Part shown: positions 2,711 through 40,586 of the stretch, piece by piece
How the letters are laid out: each line of letters starts with the position of its first letter
How positions within the stretch are numbered: the stretch's first letter is position 1
NCBI GenBank assembly: GCA_023245195.1
Contig: JAHFKU010000002.1
Coordinates: forward strand, 1 to 49,827
Reading direction: 5' to 3'
Source of the DNA: Candidatus Staskawiczbacteria bacterium
Lineage (GTDB): Bacteria > Patescibacteriota > Minisyncoccia > Minisyncoccales > Staskawiczbacteraceae
Length of the DNA stretch: 49,827 bases
Program-made: the position numbers and the translations under genes
The notes under the pieces: generated by a model
Databases searched by the model: none
The model's input: the letters and a program-made list of their open reading frames with translations, nothing else
What the model was told of the DNA's origin: nothing

Positions 2711-3303
2711 ATAATATAGACTTAACAAAATTAACACCAGACAAACGCTATTTAAAAGAAATGGAACATGTGGTTTATGACCAAGAATGGTTTAAAACTG
2801 CTGAAAATTTTGAGTTGTATGATATGTACCGAAAAATTAAGGTAGAAAATGGATTGAGATATGATGTCACTATTATTCATCCTAGAATGTTTGCAAATGA
2901 ATTTGCAAAAACCAAAGGACATATTCATGCCGGTTTTTATGGTGAAGTGTATATGGTTTTAGAAGGAGAAGGATTTTATCTTGCTCAAAAGGGAGACGAA
3001 GATAATATTGAAGACGTTGTGGTTACACACGGAAAAAAAGGAGACGTAATCGTAATTCCAGCCGGATATGGCCACGTCACTATAAATCCTTCAAACCAAG
3101 AGTTAAAAACTGCCAATTGGGTAGCTGAAAGTGATAAAGGAAACTTTGAACCTTTTGAAAGAAATCAAGGAGCATGCTACTACTACACCACAGCAGGCTG
3201 GGTAAAAAATCCAAACTACAAACAAGTTCCTGAATTAAGATTCCAAGAACCATTAAAAGAAGTTCCAACAGATTTAGAATTTTTAAAAGTCCCGAAAACA
3301 TAG
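2701..3303 (+). CDS. cupin-type glucose-6-phosphate isomerase (archaeal cPGI-like)
   Basis: 200 aa with a cupin metal motif (TKGHIHAGFYGEVYMVLEGEG ... IPAGYGHVTINP), as in the PF06560 family. Overlaps the upstream gene by 10 nt. Confidence 0.65.
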   Translation: MEINNIDLTKLTPDKRYLKEMEHVVYDQEWFKTAENFELYDMYRKIKVENGLRYDVTIIHPRMFANEFAKTKGHIHAGFYGEVYMVLEGEGFYLAQKGDEDNIEDVVVTHGKKGDVIVIPAGYGHVTINPSNQELKTANWVAESDKGNFEPFERNQGACYYYTTAGWVKNPNYKQVPELRFQEPLKEVPTDLEFLKVPKT

Positions 3304-3362
3304 TTTTCGCGGATCCTCGCATAAATTTAATGTCGTTAAATTTATCAGGACTAAATAAAAAA

Positions 3363-3444
3363 GCCCGGGTGGCGAAATTGGCAACCGCATACGCTTCAGG
3401 TGCGTACGCCGCAAGGCTTGCAGGTTCGACTCCTGTCCCGGGCA
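3363..3444 (+). tRNA. tRNA-Leu (anticodon CAG), type II
   Basis: Hand-folded cloverleaf: acceptor GCCCGGG/CCCGGGC, anticodon stem TACGC/GCGTA with loop TTCAGGT, long variable arm, T-loop TTCGACT. Confidence 0.85.
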
Positions 3445-3450
3445 CAAAAG

Positions 3451-3525
3451 GCTCCCATCGTTCAATGGACAGGACACAAGCCTCCGAAGTTTGAAATCCA
3501 GGTTCGACTCCTGGTGGGGGCACCA
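3451..3525 (+). tRNA. tRNA-Arg (anticodon CCG), CCA encoded
   Basis: Acceptor GCTCCCA/TGGGGGC (one G-U), anticodon stem CAAGC/GTTTG with loop CTCCGAA, T-arm CCAGG-TTCGACT-CCTGG, then ACCA. Confidence 0.85.
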
Positions 3526-3681
3526 GAAGGCGAACCTTTTTACCCCGTTTAGGAAAATATTAAAAACCGGCAAGACGCGAGAATTGCGGGCTTGACCCGA
3601 ATTCCCGTCTCAGGGTTTTTAAAGCTGGGGGTCGGGGTAAAAAGTAAAGGTTCTAGCGAAGCGGACTCCTGGTGGGGGCAC
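3526..3681. repeat. tRNA-linked repeat L1: hairpin module bounded by an 18-bp direct repeat of the tRNA-Arg 3' end
   Basis: GACTCCTGGTGGGGGCAC occurs at 3506-3523 (inside the tRNA) and again at 3664-3681. Between them lies a 56-nt core (about 3564-3619) identical to the reverse complement of 42185-42240. Confidence 0.7.
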
Positions 3682-3767
3682 AAAATTCAACTCAAAGTGA
3701 ATATAAAAATTAACTCAAAGAAATTCGCATACGTGAACTCAAAAACGTAGCGATAAAAAAATAAACT

Positions 3768-3895
3768 GGAGTATTCACGAATATACCAATACGATCAAAT
3801 ATACAAATGTTACAAATATACGAATACACACACCACGATTTGTATATTCGTAAAATTCGTATATTAATTTAGATTTGTATATTCGTGATTACTCC
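3768..3895. repeat. Palindromic intergenic element, GGAGTA(A/T)TCACGAATATAC family, copy A
   Basis: Termini GGAGTATTCACGAATATAC ... GTATATTCGTGATTACTCC are inverted repeats. Arms are built from CNAATAT(A) words. Ends 15 nt before the RNase J start. Confidence 0.8.
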
Positions 3896-3909
3896 TAAAT
3901 AAAAACATC

Positions 3910-5673
3910 ATGCAAAAACCAAGAAGAAATTATAACCCGCGCCAAACCGCCCGCAAAACTGCGCCCGGCTTTGGCGAACCAAAATTAGAATTAACACCGG
4001 CCAAGCCCAACACCCTGCGCATCATTCCCTTGGGAGGATGCGAAGAAGTTGGTCGCAACATGACGGTCTTTGAATATAATCAAGACATTGTGGTTTTAGA
4101 TATGGGCCTGCAGTTCCCCGAAGAAGACATGCCGGGAATTGATTATGTTATTCCCAATACGGAATATTTAAAAGGCAAAGAAAAAAATATCAAAGCAGTC
4201 ATCTTTTCCCACGGCCACTTAGACCACATTGGAGCCGCGCCGATTTTACTGAAAAAATTAAACTATCCGCAGGTTATCGGCCGACCTTTAACCATGGAAA
4301 TGATCAAACACCGGATGGAAGACTTTGAAAAAGGCAGCAGCAAAAAATTAAAGACCCTTTATATAAAAGACTTGAAAGACAAGGTTTCTTTGGGCGCGTT
4401 TGCCTTGTCGTTTTTCCAAATTGACCACGCTATCATGGACGCCGTCGGAGTGATTTTAGAAACCCCGGTAGCCAGCATTTTGCACCCGGGTGATTGGACC
4501 ATCGAAAAAGACCCCATTGGCCGAGACGTCATCCATTACAATCATTTAGCTAATGTTAAACGCCCGACCATTTTAATGCTAGAAGCTTTAGGAGCCGTTA
4601 ACACCAAGACTCCAGTAACCGAGCAAGAAATGATCGGCAATATCAATAAACTCATCGGGCAAGCGCCCGGCCGCACGATTATTGCCACCTTTTCCAGCCA
4701 AATCGAAAGAATCAAGCAAATTTTGGAATTTGCCAACCACGCCGGAAAAAAGGTAGCGCTTGACGGGTTTTCCATGAAACTTAACATAGAACTGGCCACC
4801 AAATTAGGATATGTAAATATTCCAAAAGGCGTTATTATTCCGGTAGATAAAATAGCAGATTATCCGGACAATAAAGTAATTATTATTTGCACCGGGGCCC
4901 AAGGCGAAGAAATGGCCGCTCTGCCAAGAATTATTGCCGGAAACCACAAATACATTACCATTAAAAAAGAAGACACGATTATCTTTTCTTCTTCAGTCAT
5001 TCCAGGAAATGAACGAACCGTCCAGCGCGTTAAAGATAATATTTACCGTTTATCTGACAACGTTTATCACAACGACATTATGAACGTGCACGCTTCTGGA
5101 CATACTAACATTGAAGGCATCAAGCAAATGCTAGCCGAAGTAAAGCCGGATTACTTTATTCCAGTGTATGGCAACCATTTTATGTTAAAAGAATGCGCCC
5201 GAATCGCCTATGGAATGGGAATCTTAAAACACAAAGTGTTTGTGCCTGATAACGGATCTATTATTGTTTTTGACCAGCAAAAAGGCGAAATACTGAAAGA
5301 AAAAGTGCCAACCAATTATGTCTTTGTTGACGGGCTGGGCGTGGGAGATGTAGGAGAAATAGTTCTGCGCGACCGCCAAATGCTGGCCCAAGACGGCATG
5401 TTTATGATTGTAGCCGTCATAGACCGCCAAACCGGACAAGTCAAAGGCTCACCCGATATTATTTCCCGCGGATTTGTGTATTTGCGAGAATCAAAAGACT
5501 TGCTCGCCCAAACCCGCAAGAAAGTGATTGAAATTGTAGGGAAATCAGCAGGCCATGGCAAAACCGAAAATTGGTCTTATGTAAAAGATGAAATACGCAA
5601 TAAAGTCGGGGATTTCTTGTTTGTCAAAACAGAAAGAAGGCCGATGATTTTGCCAGTGGTAATAGAGGTATAA
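3910..5673 (+). CDS. rnj: ribonuclease J (metallo-beta-lactamase / beta-CASP)
   Basis: 587 aa with the HGHLDHIG motif and RNase J-like layout through to the C-terminal domain. Confidence 0.85.
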   Translation: MQKPRRNYNPRQTARKTAPGFGEPKLELTPAKPNTLRIIPLGGCEEVGRNMTVFEYNQDIVVLDMGLQFPEEDMPGIDYVIPNTEYLKGKEKNIKAVIFSHGHLDHIGAAPILLKKLNYPQVIGRPLTMEMIKHRMEDFEKGSSKKLKTLYIKDLKDKVSLGAFALSFFQIDHAIMDAVGVILETPVASILHPGDWTIEKDPIGRDVIHYNHLANVKRPTILMLEALGAVNTKTPVTEQEMIGNINKLIGQAPGRTIIATFSSQIERIKQILEFANHAGKKVALDGFSMKLNIELATKLGYVNIPKGVIIPVDKIADYPDNKVIIICTGAQGEEMAALPRIIAGNHKYITIKKEDTIIFSSSVIPGNERTVQRVKDNIYRLSDNVYHNDIMNVHASGHTNIEGIKQMLAEVKPDYFIPVYGNHFMLKECARIAYGMGILKHKVFVPDNGSIIVFDQQKGEILKEKVPTNYVFVDGLGVGDVGEIVLRDRQMLAQDGMFMIVAVIDRQTGQVKGSPDIISRGFVYLRESKDLLAQTRKKVIEIVGKSAGHGKTENWSYVKDEIRNKVGDFLFVKTERRPMILPVVIEV

Positions 5674-9431: not shown

Positions 9432-9564
9432 GGAGTAATCACGAATATACAAATCTGGGACAATATACGAATTTTACGAATATACTAATCACGACGGTTC
9501 GTCCGTATTCGTATATTGGTAACATTTGTATATTTGACCGTATTTGTATATTAGTGACTACTCC
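9432..9564. repeat. Palindromic intergenic element, GGAGTAATCACGAATATAC family, copy B
   Basis: GGAGTAATCACGAATATAC ... GTATATTAGTGACTACTCC. The loop region contains CACGACGG. Ends 3 nt before the rpsF ATG. Confidence 0.8.
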
Positions 9565-9567
9565 ACT

Positions 9568-10020
9568 ATGAAACCATACGAATTAACCTATATTATATCT
9601 TCGGCCCAAAAGTCTGATGATGCAGAAAACCTCAAAAAAGAGGTTGAAGTTTTTGTGCAAGAAAAAGGCGGGGTCATTGTAAAATCAGAAAAAACCGTTC
9701 CTCAAAGCCTGGCTTACCCTATTAAAAAACAGAGTTCCGGTTTTTTTGTGACCTTGGAATTTCAGGGAGAAGAAAAAGAAATCAAGCCCCTGCAAGAAAA
9801 ATTAGAAAAGAATCAAAATATCTTGCGCCATTTTCTTATCATCAAAAAACCGGCCAAGCAAATGAAAGAACGAAGAACCAGAAGGCCGATGATGGCAGAA
9901 TCAAGAATGAAAGCAAAGCCTGAAACCAGCAGTGTCTATAAAGAAAAATTCAAAAAAGAGGAATCAGAAGTTAGCTTAAAAGATATTGATAAAAAGCTGG
10001 ACGAAATCCTTTCAGAATAA
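9568..10020 (+). CDS. rpsF: 30S ribosomal protein S6 with charged C-terminal extension
   Basis: MKPYELTYII... is S6-like. I prefer the ATG at 9568 because the tracked TTG at 9544 lies inside the palindrome. Confidence 0.85.
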   Translation: MKPYELTYIISSAQKSDDAENLKKEVEVFVQEKGGVIVKSEKTVPQSLAYPIKKQSSGFFVTLEFQGEEKEIKPLQEKLEKNQNILRHFLIIKKPAKQMKERRTRRPMMAESRMKAKPETSSVYKEKFKKEESEVSLKDIDKKLDEILSE

Positions 10021-10637: not shown

Positions 10638-10660
10638 AATTATCAAGCGCAATGAATTTA

Positions 10661-10720
10661 CCAAGCACTCAATGCGTTGAGTACTCGGTGATAATTTATT
10701 CGCTTCGCTCATAAATTATC
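10661..10720 (+). promoter_or_regulatory. Double hairpin abutting the rpsR start codon; paralog of 36235-36287
   Basis: GCACTCAATGCGTTGAGTACTCGGTGATAATTTAT matches 36241-36275 with 2 mismatches. The second hairpin GATAATTTAT...ATAAATTATC ends at -1 of the ATG. Confidence 0.6.
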
Positions 10721-27437: not shown

Positions 27438-27642
27438 AAAAACCCCGCCGTAGCTGTGAATTACCAAACCCCTCGGAGGTATTTTGTCCAAATTTGGAGA
27501 TAGAAATGTGATAGAATTTTTAGGCTTAGCCAAAGGCTCCGCCTGAAAATTATAGCACATTTATAGCCCAAATTTGGACGAAAGACCCCGAAATTGTTTT
27601 ATTATTGGGGTTTGGTAATTTACAGCGCAGTAGCGGGGTTTT
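27438..27642 (+). ncRNA. Long-hairpin element E1 (family E1-E3), in the tRNA-Ser(TGA) trailer; also terminator-like
   Basis: Outer stem AAAACCCCGC...AATTACCAAACCCC / GGGGTTTGGTAATT...GCGGGGTTTT. The core shares GATAGAATTT, AAATTATnGC and GAAAGACCYGAAA blocks and the stem architecture with E2 and E3. A T-run follows. Confidence 0.5.
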
Positions 27643-29554: not shown

Positions 29555-29735
29555 TTTAAACCTTGAATCAGGAAATGCTTTCAGTGGATTTCCTCCAAAT
29601 TTGGAAGGTGAAAATTCGATAGAATTTTGAGTCATAGCCAAAGGCTTCTGGCTCAAAATTATTGCGGATTTTCAACCCAAATTTGGAGGAAAGACCTGAA
29701 ACTTTTTTCCAAGGCATTTCGTGATTTAAGGTTAA
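29555..29735 (+). ncRNA. Long-hairpin element E2 (family E1-E3), 5' leader of the SEC-C mini-protein gene
   Basis: GAAATGC.../...GCATTTC outer stem, CCTCCAAATTTGG/CCAAATTTGGAGG stem, and conserved internal blocks shared with E1 and E3. The core ends 24 nt before the ATG. Confidence 0.5.
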
Positions 29736-30097: not shown

Positions 30098-30634
30098 ATG
30101 GCTAATCACCCAGCGGCAACGCAGGCACGAGTTTTGGGTGAAGATTTTGAAGGATTTTCAAGATTTATTAAAGATTCACATCGATGGCTAGAACGAATAA
30201 AAAAGAAAAGTATTTTCTGGCAATTGGAGGATAGAAAGATTGGAGCGCTTACAATGTGGCCAATGCTTTCTACAGCGGCATTAGGAATTGATGAAAATGT
30301 TAAAAAACTCCATGTATATTTTAACGATTATTCGAAATTAGAATATGCCTTCGGATGCCTGGGACATGAAATTGCCCACACGTTTGGTTTAAACTTTAAA
30401 AAAGATTCTATTACAAAAACATTTGATCAACATTCAGATAAATTTCACTTCAACCCCGATGAATATGGACCTACGATATTTTTCATTGAAGACCTTTGCA
30501 ACGCGTTTGCCAGAAAATGGGTATCCATTAATACCAAAGAAAAAATCAAAAAGGACTGTCAGGAGAGAAACAACATGCTATCGGCCTTCATTTTGTTCAT
30601 TTCTGATGCCAGAGAAAAAGAATATACATTATAA
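30098..30634 (+). CDS. putative zinc metallopeptidase (HExxH; ImmA/IrrE-like)
   Basis: 178 aa from the ATG at 30098, which is preceded by AAAGAGG. The only recognisable feature is the GCLGHEIAHTFG motif. Confidence 0.45.
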   Translation: MANHPAATQARVLGEDFEGFSRFIKDSHRWLERIKKKSIFWQLEDRKIGALTMWPMLSTAALGIDENVKKLHVYFNDYSKLEYAFGCLGHEIAHTFGLNFKKDSITKTFDQHSDKFHFNPDEYGPTIFFIEDLCNAFARKWVSINTKEKIKKDCQERNNMLSAFILFISDAREKEYTL

Positions 30635-30719
30635 ACCAAGGAATCGCTTGGTTTTTTTATTGAATTTAATTTTTAAAAGTTATCCACAGGTTGTTATTTT
30701 TCCTAAGTAAAAACGAGAT

Positions 30720-30748
30720 TTGCATCAAAAAAACAAAAAGAGTAAAAT
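30720..30748 (+). promoter_or_regulatory. candidate promoter TTGCAT-N17-TAAAAT of the nrdA leader
   Basis: Motifs and spacing read directly. The predicted start coincides with the 5' end of E3. Confidence 0.5.
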
Positions 30749-30753
30749 GTAGT

Positions 30754-30930
30754 TACTTTAAATTGCAAAATGCTTTCAAGGAATTTTATTTAAATTTCAC
30801 GGCGAAAATTTGATAGAATTTCAAAATGTAGTTTGCTACATTTTGAAATTATTGCGAATTTGCAGATGAAATTTAAAGAAAAGACCTGAAATTACTTTTC
30901 ATAAGGAGGCATTTTCGATTTAAAGTAAGA
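30754..30930 (+). ncRNA. Long-hairpin element E3 (family E1-E3), 5' leader of nrdA
   Basis: AAAATGC.../...GCATTTT stem, TTTAAATTTCA/TGAAATTTAAA stem, and a 13-bp apical stem TTTCAAAATGTAG/CTACATTTTGAAA. Conserved blocks match E1 and E2. Followed by an AT-rich hairpin plus T-run at 30981-31020. Confidence 0.5.
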
Positions 30931-31072
30931 TTACATAAAAAATAATTCAAAAATCAAAGTTCAAAAATCAAATTTTAGGTATCAAAATTTTCTTTTCGAG
31001 AAAATTTTGATGAATTTTTTAATTTTAAATTGTCATTTTGCATTTTGATATTTGCATTTTGCATTAACTATC

Positions 31073-33913
31073 ATGGATTTAACCATCACAAAACGCGACG
31101 GGACCAAAGTATTATTTAATGCCGATAAAATTAATCGTTCTATAGAACGCGCCGCGTTTGGGATGATTGACCCTATCGCTAAAGTTACTCAAGTAGCTAC
31201 CGATACTAAAGTTACACTGTATGATGGCATCACCACTGAAGAATTAGACCAAGCCACCATTAATGCCGCTGTTCAAAACATAAAAGAAGATGTTGATTAT
31301 GACAAAATTGCCACTCGCCTACTATTAAAGACTGTTTATAAGCACGTCTTGGGCGATTACGAAACTAACGAAGAATTAAAAAAACTCCACAAAGAACATT
31401 TTGCGGACTATGTAAAAAAAGGCGTGGCAGATAACATCCTAGATGAAAGAATGCAAAAAAACTTTGATCTGGAAAAACTGGCCGCTGCCTTAGACATTTC
31501 GCGCGACGAATTATTTATTTACGCCGGACTTTCCAGCCTTTTAGACCGATATTCAGTAAAAGATAAAAACCAGCAAGCTTTTGAAACACCCCAGTATTTA
31601 TTCATGCGCGTGGCCATGGGAAATTCTTATAACGAAGTTGACCCAACCGAATGGGCCATCAAATTTTACGAGAAAATGTCCCAACACGAATACATTGCCG
31701 GTGGGTCAACCAATATCAATGCCGGCACCCCAAATCCCGCCCTTTCAAACTGCTTTTTGCTTGAAATCCATGACGACATGAACCATATTTCAAAATCGGT
31801 GGCCGATGTCATGCTTTTATCTAAAGCTTCCGGTGGGCTAGGCGCTTCTATTACTAAGCTGCGCGCTACCGGATCTCCCCTATCAAGCAACAACACCACT
31901 TCAAGTGGCCCAACCCCTTTTGCAAAAATCATTGACACGGCCATCCGGGCTATCCAACGCGGAGGCAAAAAAAAGGGCGCCCTTTGTTTTTACATGGAAA
32001 ACTGGCACATTGATTTTCCGGAATTTGTTGAATGGAAGCACAATGCCGGCGACGATTATTTAAGAATGCGAACCGCCGACACCGCCGCCTATCTTTCTGA
32101 TGAATTTTTCAAACGAGTTGAGGCCCGCCAAGACTGGTATATGTTTGACCCAAAAGAAACTCCTGATTTAAACGAACTATACGGCAAAGCATTTTCGATC
32201 CGCTATAACGAATATGTCAAAATGGCCGATGAAGGAAAGTTAAGAATGTTTAAAAAAGTCCCGGCCACTGAACAATATCGCCAAATCTTGGTTGCCCTGC
32301 AAACGACCAGCCATCCATGGCTCACTTTTAAAGATCCGATCAATTTACGGGCGCTAAACAACAATACCGGCACGATTCACATGTCAAACCTGTGCACTGA
32401 AATTTGTTTACCTCAAGATAAAGATAATATTGCGGTTTGCAACTTAGCTTCTATTAATATCCCGACCCATTTAAAGAAAAAACAGATTGACTGGCAAAAA
32501 CTGGAAGAATCTGTCAGACTGGCTGTGCGCCAATTAGATAATTTGATAGATATTAATATTTTGCCGGTGCCCGAAGCTAGAAAATCAGATTCTGAAAACC
32601 GCGCTATTGGACTTGGTGTCATGGGATTTTCCGATGCTATTGAACAACTTGGTATTCCCTATGATTCGCCCCATGCCTATGATTTTACCGATAAAATGTT
32701 TGAGTTTATCAGCCATATGGCCATTGATGAATCGGCTAATTTGGCGGCTGAACGCGGAAGTTACAAAAATTTTGCCGGATCAGAATGGTCAAAAGGAAAA
32801 GTGCCGATAGACACTATGGAAAGGTTGGAACTGGAACGCGGAATTGCTATTGATGTTGATAAAAAATCAAAACAAAATTGGCTAGATTGGGAAACCCTGC
32901 GCGCTAAAGTAAAAAACGGCATGAGAAATGCTACGCTTATGGCGGTTGCCCCCAATGCCAACATTGGCCTCGTAGCCGGAACCACTCCGGGCATTGATCC
33001 GCGGTTTGCCCAGGTATTTTCGCGCAATAAAATTTCTGGGAAATATTTAGACATCAACCATAATTTGGTCACTGAATTGAAAAATATGAATTTATGGGAT
33101 ATGGTAAAAGGCAAAATTATTGAATTGCAGGGCGATATTTCAAGCATCCAAGAAATCCCGCCCCATATCCGCGAAATTTATAAAACTTCTTTTTCGGTTT
33201 CGCCGTATGCCTTTGTAGAAGTGGCGGCCCGGGCCCAAAAATGGGTTGATCAAGCATTGTCGCGAAATATGTATTTGGAAGACCGCGATATGGACAAAAC
33301 CATGGACATCTATTTTTCTGCTTGGAAGAAAGGGTTAAAATCAACTTATTATTTGCACATGAAACCACGCCACAGCGCCGAACAAAGCACGGTGGCCGTT
33401 AATAAGTCGGCTAAATTGGGCAAGACGGGGTTTGCGTCCGTCTTTAAGACGGCGCAGATTAACGCGGATGAAACGCGGATTAACGCAGATATGAAAGTTG
33501 AAGTAATATCGGAAGTTGTTAAAGAAGAAGTTATTGAAAAAGAACAGGATCAAATCATTGATTCCGCCTTCGCCGAAATTCCGGCGGACAGATCAGCGGA
33601 CGAAGAGGCGATTTCCACCAAAGGCTTTGGCGCACTCCGGCAAACTGCAACTGAATCCGCCTCAACTCAAAGCTTTGATGAAACAAAGCCAGTAAAAATA
33701 GTTGTAGAACCCTTAAAACAAGTTTCAGAGCCTATTTTTTCAAAAGTGCAAACTCAGTTGTCCCCGTTGCAAAGCAACGAGGGATTCTCGATGAAATCAG
33801 AACCAAATCCAGAAAATAGCCACTACCAGGAAAAAATCATTGACGGAAAAGTATATAAAATCCACATGCCCACCGACCCAGCAGAAAAAAACATGTGCGA
33901 CGGCTGCCAATAA
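31073..33913 (+). CDS. nrdA: ribonucleoside-diphosphate reductase alpha subunit (class I) with ATP-cone and long low-complexity C-terminal extension
   Basis: ATP-cone (ITKRDGTKVLFNADKINRSIERA), catalytic blocks (NLCTEI..., GLGVMGF, STYYLHM) and a terminal CDGCQ. ATG at 31073 is preferred. Confidence 0.9.
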   Translation: MDLTITKRDGTKVLFNADKINRSIERAAFGMIDPIAKVTQVATDTKVTLYDGITTEELDQATINAAVQNIKEDVDYDKIATRLLLKTVYKHVLGDYETNEELKKLHKEHFADYVKKGVADNILDERMQKNFDLEKLAAALDISRDELFIYAGLSSLLDRYSVKDKNQQAFETPQYLFMRVAMGNSYNEVDPTEWAIKFYEKMSQHEYIAGGSTNINAGTPNPALSNCFLLEIHDDMNHISKSVADVMLLSKASGGLGASITKLRATGSPLSSNNTTSSGPTPFAKIIDTAIRAIQRGGKKKGALCFYMENWHIDFPEFVEWKHNAGDDYLRMRTADTAAYLSDEFFKRVEARQDWYMFDPKETPDLNELYGKAFSIRYNEYVKMADEGKLRMFKKVPATEQYRQILVALQTTSHPWLTFKDPINLRALNNNTGTIHMSNLCTEICLPQDKDNIAVCNLASINIPTHLKKKQIDWQKLEESVRLAVRQLDNLIDINILPVPEARKSDSENRAIGLGVMGFSDAIEQLGIPYDSPHAYDFTDKMFEFISHMAIDESANLAAERGSYKNFAGSEWSKGKVPIDTMERLELERGIAIDVDKKSKQNWLDWETLRAKVKNGMRNATLMAVAPNANIGLVAGTTPGIDPRFAQVFSRNKISGKYLDINHNLVTELKNMNLWDMVKGKIIELQGDISSIQEIPPHIREIYKTSFSVSPYAFVEVAARAQKWVDQALSRNMYLEDRDMDKTMDIYFSAWKKGLKSTYYLHMKPRHSAEQSTVAVNKSAKLGKTGFASVFKTAQINADETRINADMKVEVISEVVKEEVIEKEQDQIIDSAFAEIPADRSADEEAISTKGFGALRQTATESASTQSFDETKPVKIVVEPLKQVSEPIFSKVQTQLSPLQSNEGFSMKSEPNPENSHYQEKIIDGKVYKIHMPTDPAEKNMCDGCQ

Positions 33914-33914
33914 A

Positions 33915-34232
33915 ATGAACCCAACAAAATTATCACTAAAATTAGCTGGCTTTCTTGCTCTATTTATCGTTATTAGTGACAACGTTAAATTAGACACATT
34001 AAAATTCGATGAGAATGCAATAAAGGAGAAAAAGTTTGATAATTTAAAATTAGAAAGTCCGAGTCCAAAACTAGAAACCTACCAACCACTAAAATTCTCA
34101 ACTTTAGATATAACAAGAAGGAATTATCCATTAAATTCAGAAAGAGAAGAGGGTGTTAGCGATTATCTTCAAAATTACCAACTATCCGGCAGTCCAGATT
34201 CAAGTATTAGTTTTCGTTTTTTTCAATTCTAA
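33915..34232 (+). CDS. hypothetical signal-anchored protein
   Basis: ATG lies 1 nt after the nrdA stop. MNPTKLSLKLAGFLALFIVISD... The upstream part of the tracked ORF overlaps nrdA out of frame. Confidence 0.4.
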   Translation: MNPTKLSLKLAGFLALFIVISDNVKLDTLKFDENAIKEKKFDNLKLESPSPKLETYQPLKFSTLDITRRNYPLNSEREEGVSDYLQNYQLSGSPDSSISFRFFQF

Positions 34233-34248
34233 GACAACCAAATTAATA

Positions 34249-34390
34249 GATAGATTTTTTGGAGGACTTACCTATGTTGCGCCTCCAGAATGACAGCTCT
34301 CCAGCCCAAGCATATGGAGTTTCTGATAGGAGGGAACGTATGCCCGAGGAATATCGGAGATCGATATAGGTATCGTCCAAAAAATCTATC
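34249..34390 (+). other. G+C-richer structured module closed by a 15-bp perfect inverted repeat; contains a 31-codon ORF (34274-34369)
   Basis: GATAGATTTTTTGGA (34249-34263) pairs with TCCAAAAAATCTATC (34376-34390). A second stem is GGAC..ACCTAT/ATAGGT..GTCC. GGAGG lies 8 nt upstream of the ATG at 34274. Confidence 0.4.
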
Positions 34391-34414
34391 TTCTGAAATA
34401 GACTTATAAGAAAA

Positions 34415-34738
34415 ATGGAAAACCAACAAGAATTACAACAATCAACTCCTATGAAAAAGAGTTTTTGGAGTTGGCCTGGAGGATGGGCTAGCTATGTAGT
34501 TGTTGGTGCAATTTTTTACTATGCTCAAAACTATAATAAATCTGTTATTGATGGGATTATTATTATAGTTGTATCAATATCGTGTGGTTACTCTTATCAT
34601 TATTTCAATTCAAAATCAAAAATTAAAAACGAAACCTTAAAAGCTATCATAACTTTTATTGGCCTTATTCTACTTGGAATGCTTTGTATTTCATTTTTTA
34701 CTAGTTTTGGGGATGTGTTTATAAATAATTTATACTAA
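34415..34738 (+). CDS. hypothetical small membrane protein (about 3 TM)
   Basis: 107 aa with hydrophobic segments. No recognisable family. Confidence 0.45.
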   Translation: MENQQELQQSTPMKKSFWSWPGGWASYVVVGAIFYYAQNYNKSVIDGIIIIVVSISCGYSYHYFNSKSKIKNETLKAIITFIGLILLGMLCISFFTSFGDVFINNLY

Positions 34739-34762
34739 AAATAAATACTTAAAAAAATCAGG

Positions 34763-34810
34763 GCCAATATTAGGAAAAGCCTCTCCAGAGGATATCAATA
34801 TTCACCACAT
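34763..34810 (+). pseudogene. decayed duplicate of the nrdB 5' end
   Basis: GCCAATATTAGGAAAAGCCTCTCCAGAGGATATCAATATTCACCACAT against nrdB 36290-36337 gives 41/48 identical by hand alignment. It would encode PILGKASPEDINIHH. Confidence 0.75.
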
Positions 34811-34862
34811 AAACCATAAAAAATTAATTTGACTTTAATCTTTAACGCAATATAATGATTCC

Positions 34863-35111
34863 ATGACAAAAGCATTGACGGCTAAAATCAAAGGCAAAAA
34901 ACTTCCTATTATCATCCAAAAAGATGAAGATGGTTTTTATGTTGTAGAATGCCCTGTTTTTCGCGGTTGTTATACTCAGGGCAAAACGATTGATGAGGCT
35001 TTAGTAAATATCCGGGAAGTCATTGAACTTTGCTTAGAAGAGAAAGAAAATCAAGAAACATTAGAATCGTATAATCCCCAAGAACTCAGCTTGCACAATA
35101 TTAGTCTTTAG
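34863..35111 (+). CDS. hicB: HicB-family antitoxin (UPF0150)
   Basis: 82 aa. ...IIQKDEDGFYVVECPVFRGCYTQGKTIDEALVNIREVIELCLEE matches the HicB N-terminal fold pattern. Confidence 0.75.
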   Translation: MTKALTAKIKGKKLPIIIQKDEDGFYVVECPVFRGCYTQGKTIDEALVNIREVIELCLEEKENQETLESYNPQELSLHNISL

Positions 35112-35132
35112 AATTAATCTAATTTTCTCTTT

Positions 35133-35357
35133 GTGGCAAAATTACCTTCGGTTTCAGGAAAAACAGCAATAAAAGCTTTTGTAAAGATTGGTTATATTAT
35201 TGCACGGTAGAAAGGAAGCCACATAAGATTACTGCATACAAGCAGGGATCCATTAACTATTCCAAACCACAAGTTACTAGGAAGAGGACTGTTAAGGAAA
35301 TTATTAAGAGACGCTCAATTATCTGTTAATGATTTTGTTAACCTGTTAAAAAATTAG
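35133..35357 (+). pseudogene. hicA: HicA-family toxin interrupted by an in-frame TAG (35208-35210)
   Basis: GTG start. VAKLPSVSGKTAIKAFVKIGYIIAR*KGSHIRLLHTSRDPLTIPNHKLLGRGLLRKLLRDAQLSVNDFVNLLKN. The stop replaces the Q of the conserved RQKGSH motif. Confidence 0.7.
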
Positions 35358-35361
35358 TCAC

Positions 35362-35415
35362 ATCCACATGCCCACCGATCCGCAAGAGAAATTTTTATGT
35401 GATGGATGCCAATAA
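35362..35415 (+). pseudogene. decayed duplicate of the nrdA 3' end
   Basis: ATCCACATGCCCACCGATCCGCAAGAGAAATTTTTATGTGATGGATGCCAATAA would encode IHMPTDPQEKFLCDGCQ*. The true nrdA end at 33860-33913 encodes IHMPTDPAEKNMCDGCQ*. Confidence 0.8.
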
Positions 35416-35481
35416 ATCTAAAAATTAAAAAACTATTTTTAAAAAGGTCTCGTATTAATTAATAATTCAATACTAAATTTT

Positions 35482-35667
35482 ATGGAAAGAGAAAAAATAA
35501 ATCTTGATAACAGCGAGAATTCACCAGATGAAAAGAGCATTTATAAAAAGGAGGAAAGAGAAATACTCAGGACAAGATTAGGCTTACCTATAGACGCAAC
35601 TGATCAAGAAATTAAATCAGCCAAGGAAAATGAGGATTTTCTTTATAATAGAGACAGTAAAGAATAG
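35482..35667 (+). CDS. hypothetical charged small protein
   Basis: 61 aa ORF with no recognisable family. Confidence 0.35.
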   Translation: MEREKINLDNSENSPDEKSIYKKEEREILRTRLGLPIDATDQEIKSAKENEDFLYNRDSKE

Positions 35668-35742
35668 CAAATAAAAATAGATGCCATTAATCGGTTTTTG
35701 TTTTTCAAAAAAATAACTATTGCAGTTTTTATTCATAAAAAT

Positions 35743-36225
35743 ATGCCTTTAGAAAGTGGACCAAGAGAAAGAAATAAAACCGAAGAAAGGGTTACGCAAC
35801 TTGGCAGCCAGCTTCACGATGAATGGCGCGCGACTCGTTACCGGGAAGAATCGAAAGATTACGAACCACAATTAAAGAAAACCGAAGACCAACTTTGGCA
35901 AATGGCCCATGAGGGAAAAACAGAGATCGATATTGCAAATACTAATTACCAGGATCTGCCGGAGGATTGGAAAGGAGAAAATAAAGCTTCTGCAGAGGTG
36001 ACTGTAACGGAAATTGAAAAAGCTGTGCAAGGTGGTGTTGAATTAGATGATGCTTTTGTTGAAAGTGCCAGTTCTATTTTGCACGACAAGTGGCTTGAAA
36101 GAAATGGCAGTTATGCTCCGCCAGAACAACAAAAGCCTTATGCAGAACTTTCAGAAGAAGAAAAGGAAAAAGACAGAGTTATTATTAGAAAAGGTATTGA
36201 AATATATAAAAACAAAAATAATTAA
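35743..36225 (+). CDS. RyR-domain-like protein (two repeats)
   Basis: Two repeats of the pattern LHDEWRATRY...Y / ILHDKWLERNG...PYAELSEEEKEKDR, as in the bacterial RyR domain (PF02026). ATG at 35743 is preferred. Confidence 0.5.
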   Translation: MPLESGPRERNKTEERVTQLGSQLHDEWRATRYREESKDYEPQLKKTEDQLWQMAHEGKTEIDIANTNYQDLPEDWKGENKASAEVTVTEIEKAVQGGVELDDAFVESASSILHDKWLERNGSYAPPEQQKPYAELSEEEKEKDRVIIRKGIEIYKNKNN

Positions 36226-36234
36226 AATAAAAAC

Positions 36235-36287
36235 CACCGAGCACTCAATGTGTTGAGTACTCGGTGAGAATTTATAAATAAATTCTC
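36235..36287 (+). promoter_or_regulatory. Double hairpin abutting the nrdB start codon; paralog of 10661-10720
   Basis: CACCGAGCACTCAA-TGTG-TTGAGTACTCGGTG, then GAGAATTTAT-AA-ATAAATTCTC ending at -1 of the ATG. Confidence 0.6.
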
Positions 36288-37283
36288 ATGCCAATATTAG
36301 GAAAAGCTTCGCCAGAAGACATGAATCTTCACCCCATGCGCTATCAATGGGCTTACGACCTTTACAACCAAGCTGTACGAAATACCTGGTTCCCCCACGA
36401 AATTGCTTTAAAAGAAGACTTGGAAGACTGGAATAAAATGACTGAAGACGAAAGACATGCGGTAAAGTTTACCATGGCTTTTTTTAATCCCGCTGAATTA
36501 ATCGTAAATCGTTCCATTGCCCTTGGCATTTACCCTTATTTAAAATCGCCCGAATGCCATTTGTACTTAGCCAAACAAATGTGGGAAGAAGCCAACCATT
36601 GCGTGGCGTTTGAATATGTTTTGGAAACGTTTCCGTTTGACCGCGAAAAAATATTTAATGTGCATTTAGAAACCCCTTCTATGCAGGCCAAAGAAGCCTA
36701 TGTGATGAAATATTTAAAACGGATGACCGAAGAAAAGCTGGATATAGAAACCCCTGAAGGCAAAAAAGATTTTATCCGTAATTTGGTGGCGACCAATATT
36801 GTCATGGAAGGAATCTGGTTTTATTCGGGCTTTATGGTGGCGCTTTCTTTCAGGCAACGGAATCAACTGCGAAATTTTGGCAGCATGGTTGACTGGGTGT
36901 TGCGCGATGAATCACTGCACTTAAAATTCGGCATCCAGCTTATTCAAACCGCTTTAGAAGAAAATTCAGAATTACTAACCGAAGAATTTGCCAATGAAAT
37001 AAAAAGTATTATCGTAGAAGGCGTAAATATCGAAAACGCTTACAATAAAGATTTGTTCCCCAATGGAATTTTAGGCTTAAATGCTGATTATGTAAACCAA
37101 TATGTGCAGTATGTGGCTGACAGAAGGCTGGCTGAACTGGGCTTACCAAAAGAGTATCATGTTACCAATCCCGCTAAATGGATGAGTACGGCAACGGATG
37201 TGCTGGAACTGGTAAACTTCTTTGAACAGCAAAATACCAAGTATGAAGTAGATTCGGGACATACTCAAAAACCAAAAGTATAA
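36288..37283 (+). CDS. nrdB: ribonucleotide reductase small subunit, class Ic-like (Phe at the radical Tyr position)
   Basis: Ferritin-like ligand motifs PAELIV, EEANH, MEGIWFYSGF and RDESLH. The residue four after the first His is Phe (HCVAF). Confidence 0.85.
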   Translation: MPILGKASPEDMNLHPMRYQWAYDLYNQAVRNTWFPHEIALKEDLEDWNKMTEDERHAVKFTMAFFNPAELIVNRSIALGIYPYLKSPECHLYLAKQMWEEANHCVAFEYVLETFPFDREKIFNVHLETPSMQAKEAYVMKYLKRMTEEKLDIETPEGKKDFIRNLVATNIVMEGIWFYSGFMVALSFRQRNQLRNFGSMVDWVLRDESLHLKFGIQLIQTALEENSELLTEEFANEIKSIIVEGVNIENAYNKDLFPNGILGLNADYVNQYVQYVADRRLAELGLPKEYHVTNPAKWMSTATDVLELVNFFEQQNTKYEVDSGHTQKPKV

Positions 37284-37311
37284 TTGACACACTTACTTAA
37301 AATAATATACT
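37284..37311 (+). promoter_or_regulatory. sigma70-like promoter (TTGACA-N16-TATACT), essentially leaderless
   Basis: TTGACACACTTACTTAAAATAATATACTTAGAACATG gives 31/37 identity with the minus-strand promoter at 7101-7137, with identical spacing to the ATG. Confidence 0.6.
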
Positions 37312-37317
37312 TAGAAC

Positions 37318-37608
37318 ATGCCAAAAGAAAACTCACTTACTAAAAAAGATATCCAAGAGTTACTGGATATACAAACCAAGGACGTAAAAGAATTACTAAA
37401 CAACCAAACGGCTGTTATTTTGGAAGCGGTAGATGAAAAGATTAAAGCGCTTGATGATAAATTCACTCGAAAAATCGATAAACTTACCACCACATTGGAT
37501 AAATTTTTAAAAAGAATGACTGACATGGAAGATGAATTTGAAATGATGAAATACGATTTAAATAAAATGAAAAAGATCATAAGGGAAAAGTTGGGCGTTG
37601 AATTGTAA
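37318..37608 (+). CDS. small coiled-coil protein, unknown function
   Basis: 96 aa, charged heptad-like sequence. Its promoter is shared with 6843..7103. Confidence 0.55.
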   Translation: MPKENSLTKKDIQELLDIQTKDVKELLNNQTAVILEAVDEKIKALDDKFTRKIDKLTTTLDKFLKRMTDMEDEFEMMKYDLNKMKKIIREKLGVEL

Positions 37609-37676
37609 GCTTAATTGCCTTTTTGAAACTTTGTGCTAAACTGAATTTAGCTCATCTTAACTAAAGGAGGAAAAAT

Positions 37677-38072
37677 ATGTCGGAGAGAGAGAAAACCGAA
37701 GAATCAAAACAGAATGAATGGTATAAAAAATACCCCATTGGAGATTTAAATCTTCAGGATTCAGAGGATATTTGGCGAGGTGCTTACCACCATATTTTAG
37801 ACCAATTTTCAAAAATGCTAGAAGAAGAACGTAAACAGAAAATAGAAGCACTAATTCCTCAGATAGATTCATGCATTCTTGACGTACAAGCACATTTTGA
37901 TTCAAAAGAAGAATTCTATTTAGATCAACGTAGTGGCGTTTATGGAGGAAGAGATGCAATTACTGATCCACGCGAGATGCAAGAATTAAAGTATGATATA
38001 TTTAAAATAAGGAATGATATGGATAACATAAAGAATTTTAAAAAATATCTTGAGAAACTTTTAGACTCATAA
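37677..38072 (+). CDS. hypothetical protein
   Basis: 131 aa with a strong SD (AAAGGAGG) 7 nt upstream. No recognisable family. Confidence 0.55.
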   Translation: MSEREKTEESKQNEWYKKYPIGDLNLQDSEDIWRGAYHHILDQFSKMLEEERKQKIEALIPQIDSCILDVQAHFDSKEEFYLDQRSGVYGGRDAITDPREMQELKYDIFKIRNDMDNIKNFKKYLEKLLDS

Positions 38073-38082
38073 CCATATAAAC

Positions 38083-38109
38083 AACTCGACTGAAATTTCG
38101 AGTTTTTTT
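38083..38109 (+). terminator. Intrinsic terminator
   Basis: AACTCGA-CTGAAATT-TCGAGTT followed by TTTTT. Confidence 0.65.
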
Positions 38110-38137
38110 ATTACATAAATTTTGCTACTATATATCC

Positions 38138-40294
38138 ATGATTAAATTATCAACCCCCATAGAAAACGTGCCCAATATTGGCCAGGCTTACCACAAAAAA
38201 CTCAAAAAATTGGGCATCAAAACCGTCCAGGATCTGTTATTTTATTTTCCCCTGCGATACGAAGATTTTTCTAACATCATTCCCATCAGCCAAATAAAAG
38301 TGGGTGAAGTAGTTTGCGTACAAGGCAGAATTATTGCTATAGAAAATACGCAAACCTTCAAAAAATGGATGACCATTACGGAAGTCGAAATTGAAGACGA
38401 AACGGGGAATATAAAAGCGCTGTGGTTTAACCAGCCATTTTTAACTAAATCTTTAAAAGAAGATGATTTTGTGTGCCTAGCCGGAAAAGTGACATTAAGC
38501 AAAAGCGGAGTTTATTTAAATAATCCTGCATTTGAAAAAATCAGTGAAATGTCAGATAACGACGATTTAACGCATACTGGGAGAATTGTCCCGATTTATT
38601 CTGAAACCAAAGGTGTAAGTTCTAAGTGGCTACGCTATATTATAAAACCGCTTTTGGAATATTTTTACGATAAACTTCCTGAAATGCTGCCCGATGAAAT
38701 TATAAAAAAACATAAATTTTTGCCGACTAAAGAAGCGATTTGGCAAATCCATTTTCCCGAATCGTTTGAGCATGCCGATGCCGCCAAAGCCAGATTCAGT
38801 TTTGAAAATTTATTTTTATTACAACTTTCTATTTTAAAACAGCGGGCTCGCCTGCTGCAAAAAACCGCGCCAGTTTGCAAGATGGATGCTAGTTTAATGA
38901 AACAATTTACCGAATCCCTCCCCTTTCAACTAACCGATTCACAGCGCCAGTGCGCCTTTACTATTTTAAAAGATTTGGAAAAATCGGCGCCTATGTCGCG
39001 ACTACTGGAAGGAGATGTCGGGTCGGGTAAAACGGTGGTGGCAACCATGGCGGCTTTAAGCACCATCAAAAACGGTTACCAGGTGGCTTTTATGGCGCCG
39101 ACAGAAATTTTAGCCAGCCAACACTTCAAAGGCATCTCAAAAATGTTGGAAAAGTTTAACGTAACAATTGGTTATTTAACGGGTAAAGAAAGTGTTATTT
39201 TTAAAAACGGAAAAATAACTGAAATTAAAAAGAAAGACTTGCTTTTGGAATTGCAGTTTGGCCAAATTGATATGCTTATTGGCACCCATACCCTGATTTC
39301 AAAAGGGGTGTTGTTTTCAAAATTAGCCCTGGTGGTCTTAGACGAACAACACCGCTTTGGAGTCAATCAACGCGCCCAATTGGTAAAAGATAAAAAGTTA
39401 ATCCCCCATTTATTGAGTATGACTGCGACACCTATTCCAAGAACGCTGGCCTTAACGGTGTACGGTGATTTAGATTTATCTTTGATAAAAGAAATGCCAA
39501 AAAACCGAAAGAAAATAAAAACCCTAATTATTGATTCAGAAGGCAGAAAAGATGCTTATGAATTCATCCGCAAAGAAGTCAAAGAAGGAAAGGGAGTGTT
39601 TGTCATCTGCCCGAAGATCGGCAAAGACGATGAAGAAAATAATCAGACCGCCATAAGCGGATCGTTTAGCGTTTCTAATTACAATCCTACGTTGTTTGGC
39701 GTATCAGAAATGAAAACCGTCAAACAAGAATATGAAAAACTTTCCAAAGAAATTTTTCCGGATCTTCGCATTACCATGCTCCATGGCAAAATGAAAAGCG
39801 ATGAAAAAGAACGGATCATGCAGGATTTTAAAAAAGGTGAAATAGACATTTTGCTTTCCACGTCAGTGGTAGAAGTGGGCGTTGATGTGCCGCGGGCCAC
39901 GGTTATGATGATTGAGGGAGCTGAACGGTTCGGCTTGGCCCAGCTTCATCAGTTTCGTGGAAGAGTGGGCAGAAGCGACATGCAAAGCTATTGTTTTTTA
40001 TTTACCACCGACCCAAGCCAATTAAATAGAAAACGGTTAAAAGCGATGATCGACTGCGATAACGGTTTTGAATTGGCGCAAAAAGACTTGGAAATTCGCG
40101 GACCGGGGCAATTATATGGGGCCCAGCAGTGGGGTCTGCCAGATGTAGCTATGGAAGGAATGCTCAATATATTTTTGGTTGAAAAAACCCGCCAGGCCGC
40201 CAAAGAAATATTAGAAAAAGATCCGGAATTAAGCAATCATGCACTACTTTTAGAAAATTTGAAAAAATTCAAGCAAAAGATACATTTTGAGTAA
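38138..40294 (+). CDS. recG: ATP-dependent DNA helicase RecG
   Basis: 718 aa with a wedge/OB N-terminus, Walker A DVGSGKT, DEQHRFG and the QLHQFRGRVGR motif. Confidence 0.9.
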   Translation: MIKLSTPIENVPNIGQAYHKKLKKLGIKTVQDLLFYFPLRYEDFSNIIPISQIKVGEVVCVQGRIIAIENTQTFKKWMTITEVEIEDETGNIKALWFNQPFLTKSLKEDDFVCLAGKVTLSKSGVYLNNPAFEKISEMSDNDDLTHTGRIVPIYSETKGVSSKWLRYIIKPLLEYFYDKLPEMLPDEIIKKHKFLPTKEAIWQIHFPESFEHADAAKARFSFENLFLLQLSILKQRARLLQKTAPVCKMDASLMKQFTESLPFQLTDSQRQCAFTILKDLEKSAPMSRLLEGDVGSGKTVVATMAALSTIKNGYQVAFMAPTEILASQHFKGISKMLEKFNVTIGYLTGKESVIFKNGKITEIKKKDLLLELQFGQIDMLIGTHTLISKGVLFSKLALVVLDEQHRFGVNQRAQLVKDKKLIPHLLSMTATPIPRTLALTVYGDLDLSLIKEMPKNRKKIKTLIIDSEGRKDAYEFIRKEVKEGKGVFVICPKIGKDDEENNQTAISGSFSVSNYNPTLFGVSEMKTVKQEYEKLSKEIFPDLRITMLHGKMKSDEKERIMQDFKKGEIDILLSTSVVEVGVDVPRATVMMIEGAERFGLAQLHQFRGRVGRSDMQSYCFLFTTDPSQLNRKRLKAMIDCDNGFELAQKDLEIRGPGQLYGAQQWGLPDVAMEGMLNIFLVEKTRQAAKEILEKDPELSNHALLLENLKKFKQKIHFE

Positions 40295-40426
40295 GGAGTA
40301 ATCACGAATATACCAATACGTTCAAATATACCAATATTACCAATATACGAATCTGTCCGGCCGTCGTGATTTGTATATTGGTAATATTTGTATATTGTTT
40401 TAGATTTGTATATTCGTGATTACTCC
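40295..40426. repeat. Palindromic intergenic element, GGAGTAATCACGAATATAC family, copy C
   Basis: Starts 1 nt after the recG stop. GGAGTAATCACGAATATAC ... GTATATTCGTGATTACTCC. The loop contains CCGTCGTGA. Confidence 0.85.
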
Positions 40427-40427
40427 T

Positions 40428-40586
40428 TAACGCCTTTTTTCGGTAACCACAAAACCGTCGCTTCGCTCCTTAGAAACCCACGGTTTCTAACGTCTCCGCT
40501 CACTTCGTTCGCGGGACTGTTTTCCTTCACGGGGAAAAATCCTTTTTCCCCGACCCCCTTCTCGGTTTTGGATAACAGAAAAGCGC
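40428..40586. repeat. tRNA-linked repeat family, copy L3 (downstream of the GT2 gene)
   Basis: Shares CCGTCGCTTCGCTCCTT (40455-40471 = 42167-42183) and the CACGG-GGGGA..TCCCC-GACCC..CTCGGTT module with L2. Ends in a 14-bp hairpin AACAGAAAAGCGCC/GGCGCTTTTCTGTT. Confidence 0.6.

Follow-up and report, generated by a model that had tools for sequence, protein, structure and literature searches.

We analysed a stretch of 49,827 nucleotides (nt) from a Candidatus Staskawiczbacteria bacterium (assembly GCA_023245195.1, contig JAHFKU010000002.1), hereafter the window, with a focus on the 2374-nt spacer between nrdA and nrdB, which code for the large subunit and the small subunit of a class I ribonucleotide reductase (RNR). 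The window represents core chromosomal sequence of a Staskawiczbacteria-like bacterium from the candidate phyla radiation (CPR), and its genes include those for RNA polymerase beta and beta', RecA, FtsK, RNase J, SSB, S6, aminoacyl-tRNA synthetases, RecG and TsaD. The spacer holds a hicBA toxin-antitoxin (TA) module bracketed by a displaced copy of the nrdB 5' end (head) on its left and a displaced copy of the nrdA 3' end (tail) on its right. Outside these two fragments lies further cargo, designated X on the nrdA side and Y on the nrdB side (Table 1). A first-pass annotation made from the letters of the DNA had already delimited the nrdA end, the nrdB 5' fragment, hicBA and the nrdA 3' fragment, and all of them lie where it had placed them.

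Pfam matches for the two RNR genes (PF03477, PF00317, PF02867 and PF00268) identified a class I nrdAB operon including a ferritin-like small subunit. NrdA consists of an ATP-cone, an all-alpha domain, a barrel domain, a variable linker of about 140 amino acids (aa) and a CxxC tail, and this tail (C..C. before the stop codon) was kept across 145 relatives. The linker between the catalytic core and the tail (aa ~800-935, 33450-33860) is of low complexity and poorly conserved, and differs widely in length and sequence among relatives. The start codon of the first open reading frame (ORF) of cargo X, X1, sits 1 nt past the nrdA stop, and a Pfam search with X1 gave no match. A hairpin of about 145 nt with a folding energy of -56.9 kcal/mol separates X1 from X2; it had neither an Rfam match nor a second copy in the fetched loci, and Rfam gave no match anywhere across 30400-38200. 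At the other end of the spacer, the terminator-like hairpin at 36234-36267 has a 15-bp stem and a second copy after ssb (10660-10699, 92.5% identity over 40 nt). The 22-nt AT-rich palindrome GAGAATTTATAAATAAATTCTC (36265-36288) that adjoins the nrdB start codon has palindromic counterparts at the equivalent site in relatives (L091 5971-5998, L096 2142-2162, L097 4719-4746; loci of relatives are denoted by L numbers throughout), and may act as an operator or as a hairpin masking the ribosome binding site.

Table 1. Features of the nrdA-nrdB locus, with positions in the window.
Feature	Positions	Strand	Remarks
nrdA, class I RNR large subunit	31052..33913	+	Pfam; start at 31073 according to gene callers
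Functional nrdA 3' end, repeat copy 1, IHMPTDPAEKNMCDGCQ and stop	33860..33913	+	
Cargo X1, 105-aa orphan ORF with hydrophobic N-terminus	33915..34232	+	called as gene
Stable long hairpin separating X1 from X2	34240..34400	+	inverted repeat; fold z = -5.5
Cargo X2, 107-aa predicted membrane protein	34415..34738	+	
Orphan nrdB leader and 5' fragment, GPILGKASPEDINIHHI	34735..34832	+	core 34763-34810; in-frame stop 34830-34832
Promoter of hicBA cassette, near-consensus, TTGACT-16-TATAAT	34829..34856	+	
hicB antitoxin gene, intact	34863..35111	+	Pfam PF15919; relatives
hicA toxin pseudogene, GTG start	35133..35357	+	in-frame TAG 35208-35210
Orphan nrdA 3' end, repeat copy 2, IHMPTDPQEKFLCDGCQ and stop	35362..35415	+	4 nt past hicA stop
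Cargo Y1, 61-aa acidic orphan ORF	35482..35667	+	
Cargo Y2, 160-aa CPR-family protein	35743..36225	+	
Terminator-like hairpin (36234-36267), then 22-nt palindrome touching nrdB ATG	36234..36288	.	
nrdB, class I RNR small subunit	36288..37283	+	functional 5' end 36290-36337, second copy of head repeat
96-aa coiled-coil gene, 3' of nrdB	37318..37608	+	

The two nrdA tails are identical at 41 of 54 nt and at 14 of 17 aa plus the stop, and the nine codons that differ comprise six synonymous and three nonsynonymous changes. The nrdB-head fragment matches the functional head at 41 of 48 nt and has lost its start codon (ATG to GGG), while its homology reaches about 25-28 nt further 5' into an nrdB leader that resembles the leader of relatives. 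These similarities exceed chance by far: none of 2000 dinucleotide-shuffled spacers went beyond 34/54 for the tail or 30/48 for the head, so that the observed values were never attained. Profiles derived from relatives (145 genuine nrdA tails, 150 genuine nrdB heads) scored the tail fragment with 46.8 bits and the head fragment with 34.5 bits, and a scan of 165 loci in six frames gave no spurious match above 12 bits. The spacing of the two repeat pairs is 1502 nt and 1527 nt.

ERZ27280176, SRR14366769 and ERZ27280116 contain the same mosaic, assembled with an identity of 100% or 99.99%, and its gene order recurs in ERZ27296333. The longest exact runs between repeat copies are 17-18 nt, which is too short to mislead an assembler working with k=141. 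Mis-assembly is thus excluded, and the concern of the first-pass annotation about a chimeric assembly no longer applies. Short nrd 'pseudo-starts' and 'pseudo-ends' in these genomes are real, which calls for caution by annotators, and in assembly quality control such mosaics need not mean chimeras.

The junction was compared among 160 nrdB loci fetched from genomes and metagenomes, grouped by the aa identity of NrdB with a cut at 89%. Distant relatives (<89%, n=131) had a median spacer of 54 nt, with 86 spacers of at most 100 nt and 14 above 300 nt; for the closest loci (>=89%, n=18) the median was 666 nt, with one spacer of at most 100 nt and 14 above 300 nt. The single short spacer among the close loci belongs to L085 (20 nt, NrdB 97.5% identical), which represents an empty allele. 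At least 12 different cargos were found among the closest relatives. Cargo at related loci included a HicA/HicB-like pair (L001), MNT with HepT (L003, L089), a YafQ/YoeB-type toxin (L090, L205), a 23S-IVS protein (L002), a PDDEXK_3 nuclease (L038), a pilin-like protein (L044), orphan genes at several loci and members of a coiled-coil family (L089, L091, L094, L098, L211), of which another member lies 3' of nrdB in the window. Across the whole locus set, the gene ends that delimit this site (nrdA tail, nrdB head) rank among the best-conserved stretches of both genes. Neither an integrase nor a transposase turned up among the window's larger ORFs and called genes, and the examined flanks of related loci yielded no integrase or recombinase; RecA and RecG are encoded within the window itself. 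Differing cargo is thus present at one syntenic site between conserved genes that lacks mobility genes, as in minimal mobile elements and core-flanked hotspots. These data support the nrdA-nrdB junction as a genuine clade-wide hotspot for toxin-antitoxin and other small genes. The first-pass annotation had predicted a recombination hotspot and noted that no integrase is present, and both statements were upheld.

At the centre of the spacer, hicB was identified by Pfam outright (PF15919, E = 1.6e-9, 38.4 bits versus a cut-off of 27 bits), and hicA matched PF07927 (E = 3.5e-15) solely when the TAG codon at 35208-35210 was read as glutamine, so that the earlier assignment of hicB and an interrupted hicA was borne out. 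This TAG replaces the glutamine of relatives (RQKGSH), and the stop was seen in all independent assemblies. The single in-frame TAG indicates that the toxin half of the module is inactivated in the window; hicA is intact in L093, L202 and L212. The closest HicB relatives (85-91% aa identity) are nearly all located at nrdA-nrdB junctions, in several arrangements. In L204 hicB begins 37 nt past the nrdA stop, in L093 and L208 hicBA lies directly 5' of nrdB, and in L211 it stands in the middle of a 4.6-kb array. L202 and L203 have the order nrdA, hicBA, nrdA-tail fragment, 245-aa gene and nrdB, and L212 has an nrdB-head fragment, hicBA, an nrdA-tail fragment, a 154-aa gene and nrdB. In the window as well as in L212, L202 and L204, the cassette carries the motif TTGACTTT at its left end. 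More distant hicBA relatives (82% aa) occupy tight junctions elsewhere, between dnaG and rpoD or between hppA and tig (L291 5263-6477, L292, L293 1140-1692, L294), where the hicA stop precedes the downstream start codon by 5-6 nt.

The joint between hicA and the tail fragment is common to the window, L202/L203 and L212, and an alignment of 34862-35414 with L202 (81% over 554 nt) runs across it. Nucleotide identity of hicB between lineages (81-86%) tracks that of nrdB (79-84%). As hicB has diverged as much as nrdB, the core is old and was probably inherited rather than recently acquired. Sequence comparison therefore suggests that the unit of nrdB-head fragment, hicBA and nrdA-tail fragment is probably an old, inherited resident of the junction; hicBA may persist through addiction or through simple linkage. 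The genes beyond the fragments differ: X and Y of the window have no counterpart in L202 or L212.

Displaced gene ends recur among the relatives. The layout of the window is repeated in L103, with an nrdB-head fragment at 89-129, an nrdA-tail fragment (LTCDSCQ and stop) at 409-431 and nrdB at 1018. Further nrdB-head fragments were found in L001/L086, L089 (two), L094, L211 (three; the same record as L205/L206) and L212, and heads with their own leader and ATG stand directly 5' of cargo in L094 (29/31 nt), L001/L086, L089 and L211. Two of the L211 heads (4307-4372 and 5588-5650), which lie in one 4.6-kb array, are mutually identical at 58 of 59 positions and differ from the resident head, and both carry the promoter-like motif TTGACTTT within a few bases 3'. 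Fragments of the nrdA tail were present in L004 (an 18-nt remnant, CDGCQ and stop), L103, L202/L203 and L212. Moreover, nrdB 3' ends starting at aa 297-309 are duplicated 3' of nrdB in L003, L101, L211 and L212. In L003 the nrdB 3' end is repeated over 129 nt at 86% identity on both sides of a coiled-coil gene. In L212 the nrdB-recG junction (2691-5286) holds the 5' part of recG (aa 1-71) and, after it, a piece of the nrdB 3' end, and similar scars at this junction, with nrdB 3' fragments located 3' of inserted genes, exist in L003 (8883-9502), L101 (2008-2085) and L211 (10029-10103). The order of a downstream-gene head followed by an upstream-gene tail was thus seen in L103, in L212 and once more at nrdB-recG of L212. 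In relatives the fragments are mostly single, and some stand in arrays. Their end points vary: nrdB-head fragments end at codons 8, 10, 11, 14, 16, 17 and 20, and nrdA-tail fragments span 5, 7 or 17 codons, which argues against a fixed core of an attachment (att) site. Overall, displaced conserved termini lie near the intact gene in the window, L103, L212, L202 and L003, and form arrays in L089 and L211.

The two fragments of the window had both been described as decayed copies, and this applies to the nrdB head only. The head fragment is partly decayed and fits about four random hits. The orphan tail is not decayed, for it scores on the profile at the median of functional tails. When drift from the resident tail was simulated, 6 or 13 random substitutions reached this score in 0.07% or 0% of trials. 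The failure of drift to account for the orphan indicates that the two tails diverged under purifying selection, i.e. in different functional genes, and the earlier argument from synonymous differences holds for this fragment. Between the window and L202 the orphan tail differs at 9 of 54 nt, eight of them third codon positions, with a single peptide change (Met to Ile); one of the two copies ends in TAA and the other in TAG, and the DNA just 3' is unalignable. In the L212 orphan tail the differing positions are those that are variable among real tails. Orphan tails match real tails of other lineages at up to 46/54 nt, compared with 41-45/54 among themselves. Translation of the orphan tail as an independent ORF, by -1/+1 frameshifting or by hicA readthrough was considered and rejected, as neither start codon nor frame is conserved: L202/L203 have ATA for the ATG and lack any further start codon, lineages differ in the frame relative to hicA, and in-frame stops lie directly 5' in the window and L212. 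From its sequence, translation is unlikely. An orphan end of 54 nt that evolves like coding DNA provides a testable handle on how frequently this site is rewritten by recombination.

The outer cargos X (two orphan genes) and Y (the 61-aa ORF Y1 and Y2, the 160-aa protein of a CPR family) are, judged from gene comparisons, lineage-specific. Homologs of X1, X2 and Y1 were absent from about 290 fetched loci, and X2 was also without homologs in GTDB representative genomes. Y2 had been labelled a RyR-like protein, a label that fell below threshold (PF02026, E = 0.014, 16.1 bits versus a gathering score of 27.4, over 22 residues). It belongs to a CPR-wide family without a Pfam model (211 matches at E <= 0.001, with 50-80% identity among the matches listed), members of which occur in many unrelated contexts, e.g. 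adjoining parAB or a nucleoside deoxyribosyltransferase gene. PADLOC defence models gave no convincing match for the cargo. A nucleotide comparison of the fragments with about 150 real tails and heads revealed no clear source lineage. The best matches were 46/54 to the L211 tail and 41/48 to the L089 head, the latter no better than the window's own head. The search for a donor that is circular, plasmid-like or viral gave none; a relative of hicB was absent from IMG/VR, and viral nrdB genes were at most 70% identical. A sliding-window analysis of nrdB showed no clear mosaic breakpoint at 75-89% identity.

Taken together, these observations might be explained by a multi-cassette array of accessory genes that was built in several steps at an integrase-free, homology-anchored hotspot by terminal displacement, a reading to which we assign about an even chance. 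DNA of a related lineage would enter with a long homologous anchor in nrdA or nrdB, and its other end would be joined non-homologously or via a short conserved gene terminus alone, i.e. by homology-facilitated illegitimate recombination. Both nrdA and nrdB would stay intact, and a short foreign or displaced terminus would be stranded beside the resident hicBA. An event anchored on the left would strand a foreign nrdB head at the right-hand side of the new cargo, and one anchored on the right an nrdA tail at its left-hand side. Independent left- and right-anchored events around the older resident hicBA would thus yield the order X, head fragment, hicBA, tail fragment and Y. The fragments could then serve as inner homology arms, so that X (between nrdA and the nrdB fragment) and Y (between the nrdA fragment and nrdB) could each be swapped independently, probably by ordinary RecA recombination. 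Repeated overwriting of the orphan tail by functional sequence would explain its coding-like state. One-sided illegitimate joining, arm-mediated exchange of cargo and the order of events are the parts of this scheme that we infer. The first-pass annotation had proposed capture of cargo by homology rather than by site-specific recombination. The idea of homology is supported by the lack of an integrase and the variable end points, whereas the single event that it envisaged is not established.

Several points weigh against such stepwise displacement. Recombination is known here from its scars, with no event directly observed, and donors of X and Y were not found. Terminus fragments were looked for around hicBA at dnaG-rpoD and hppA-tig, and none were detected. 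The two L211 heads that agree at 58 of 59 positions could stem from internal duplication rather than from separate imports. At the illegitimate joints, placed at 34810/34811 and 35361/35362, no clear microhomology was seen. The arms are short (48-54 nt) and only 76-85% identical, with exact runs of at most 17-18 nt, which would make them poor substrates for RecA. Independent recent displacements or some other function might equally have kept the orphan tail intact, and Campbell integration of a circle with a copy of the junction yields the same topology. A candidate microhomology, CATGCC, shared by the nrdB start and the nrdA tail, was rejected as a joint, since the homology of the fragment begins 6 nt further upstream.

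A stronger version of the scheme, in which stranded termini (nrdA tail, nrdB head and tail, recG head) are working portable homology arms by which RecA inserts, swaps and stacks cassettes between CPR lineages, and in which the orphan tail is kept functional by overwriting or by returning to service, appears doubtful to us. If true, it would amount to an 'integron without an integrase' inside an essential operon.

The Campbell-type alternative had been put forward in the first-pass annotation: a single crossover with a circle that carried a foreign junction of nrdA tail and nrdB head together with hicBA would produce the whole order of nrdA end, X, nrdB-head fragment, hicBA, nrdA-tail fragment, Y and nrdB in one step and without an integrase. 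The topology is exactly the expected product, with two interleaved direct-repeat pairs around the insert and an empty junction in L085 as the target allele, and it recurs in L212, in L103 and at nrdB-recG of L212. Cargo within simple direct repeats is also known, between nrdA tails around hicBA in L202 and between the nrdB-tail repeats of L003. However, the core is common to three diverged lineages that differ in X and Y, so that further events are required anyway. The head fragment is decayed while the tail fragment is pristine, fragments in relatives are mostly single, a plasmid-like or viral carrier was not found, and the origin of a circle linking an nrdB head to an nrdA tail would itself need an explanation. 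Topology, repeats and empty target therefore agree with the earlier proposal, while its derivation from one circle in one event is not established. We consider a single crossover an unlikely account of the spacer, and Campbell integration could have been the founding event.

Site-specific recombination by an enzyme encoded elsewhere, with gene termini serving as att sites in an integron-like or cis-mobilisable fashion, would account for the arrays of small, often promoter-bearing cassettes parted by repeats in L089 and L211 and for the recurrence of TTGACTTT at left ends of cassettes, and TA cargo is typical of chromosomal integrons. No integrase or transposase was found in the window or in the examined flanks of related loci. 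The end points of fragments differ by up to 12 codons, the repeats are gene-derived, and no attC-like palindrome was seen at cassette borders, which leaves this explanation quite improbable.

Equally hard to sustain is direct selection on the orphan tail, either as a peptide or HicA extension or as a reserve copy that would serve as the real tail again once the cassette has been deleted by recombination between the two tails. It would fit the confinement of divergence between lineages to synonymous and third positions amid unalignable flanks, as well as the 15-codon ORF with ATG in the window and L212. The loss of the ATG in L202/L203, the inconsistent frame relative to hicA and the upstream in-frame stops in the window and L212 speak against it.

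It is very improbable that the junction was duplicated in tandem within this genome, that the spare copies then decayed neutrally and that cargo was inserted later. Near-equal spacing of the two repeat pairs and a head fragment compatible with about four random hits would agree with it. The orphan tail contradicts it, as it carries 13 differences from the resident tail in its last 42 nt and still scores as a functional tail (drift p < 0.001) and is as close to tails of other species as to that of its own genome; the core is, in addition, present in other species. A variable/template repeat pair of the type used by diversity-generating retroelements was rejected, as the window contains no reverse transcriptase and the mismatches are of all base types, without adenine bias, at third positions or synonymous. 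A chimera of two strains has a negligible probability, since no point in its support was found, the structure is identical across four assemblies of different samples, identical stretches between the repeat copies are no longer than 17-18 bases, and homologous structures are present in other species.

Two further types of repeats were observed in the window. A palindromic element of about 135 nt occurs in three copies (3768-3899, 9432-9568 and 40295-40430) that are 77-91% identical and all intergenic, e.g. directly past the recG stop. With GGAGTAATCACGAATATAC as terminal inverted repeats and repeats of the TATACGAAT type inside, it has the look of a miniature inverted-repeat transposable element. 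A non-coding repeat of about 110 nt (76-78% identical; 27490-27599, 29598-29708 and, weaker, 30837-30898) is situated near tRNA genes and 5' of nrdA.

The closest analogues of the spacer are the arrays of Rhs, CdiA and Vibrio cholerae type VI secretion system (T6SS) effector-immunity modules (PMC5361080 and the Rhs papers cited there). In these systems a conserved anchor lets modules in, and the former 3' end, moved downstream, persists as an orphan with a portion of the conserved region; arrays grow by serial events. Sequential displacement and homology-facilitated illegitimate recombination were proposed for T6SS and Rhs arrays (PMC5361080). At the nrd locus the displaced pieces come from the housekeeping genes nrdA, nrdB and recG instead of toxins, 3' and 5' ends are both displaced, the orphans measure 18-130 nt and carry neither a functional domain nor an immunity partner, and the cargo consists of TA modules and small orphan genes. 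Scars like those of polymorphic toxins, with displaced 5' and 3' ends, thus occur here in housekeeping genes.

Minimal mobile elements of Neisseria likewise place alternative small cassettes at one syntenic site between conserved genes, e.g. pheS-pheT. They lack mobility genes and are exchanged by transformation and homologous recombination in the flanks (Saunders & Snyder 2002 via PMC1797815; PMC3787668). Their exchange is not known to leave duplicated gene ends, whereas the scars described here divide the site into compartments on either side of a TA module that was retained. In naturally transformable bacteria, homology-facilitated illegitimate recombination (de Vries & Wackernagel 2002, Prudhomme et al. 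2002 via PMC5361080; PMC3240628) shares the one-sided anchor and the non-homologous join beside a conserved gene. Laboratory crosses are where this process is known, and the joints there show microhomology, unlike the present case, which is deduced from scars without clear microhomology. Core-gene-flanked defence hotspots, e.g. of Pseudomonas aeruginosa (PMC10250203), also combine variable accessory content with a fixed site between core genes; by comparison, the cargo here has no convincing PADLOC match, and the nrd site is much smaller in scale and internal to an operon.

The gap between nrdA and nrdB is colonised by selfish DNA in phages as well, as T4 mobE is located there (PMC2790892) and phage Aeh1 has a split nrdA (PMC3045599). 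Like the hicBA cassette, mobE brings its own transcription signals. The phage RNR elements are homing endonucleases that depend on double-strand-break repair and duplicate no gene ends, and no endonuclease gene of the homing kind was identified among the cargo examined here. Integron arrays consist of small cassettes, often TA modules, that are parted by repeated sites, and cis-mobilisable elements, which accrete at gene 3' ends, duplicate replacement gene ends at their integration sites. In contrast to both, the nrd locus showed neither an integrase nor attC-like structures, and its crossover points are not fixed.

CPR bacteria (Patescibacteria) have tiny genomes in which gene gain and loss are little known. 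Essential-gene junctions inside operons, nrdA-nrdB and also nrdB-recG, serve this clade as a depot for TA and orphan genes without visible mobile-element machinery. No description of the present locus was found in the literature searched. It differs from the known systems in the displacement of housekeeping gene ends, the involvement of both termini, the partition of the site around a TA module, the coding-like orphan and the CPR host.

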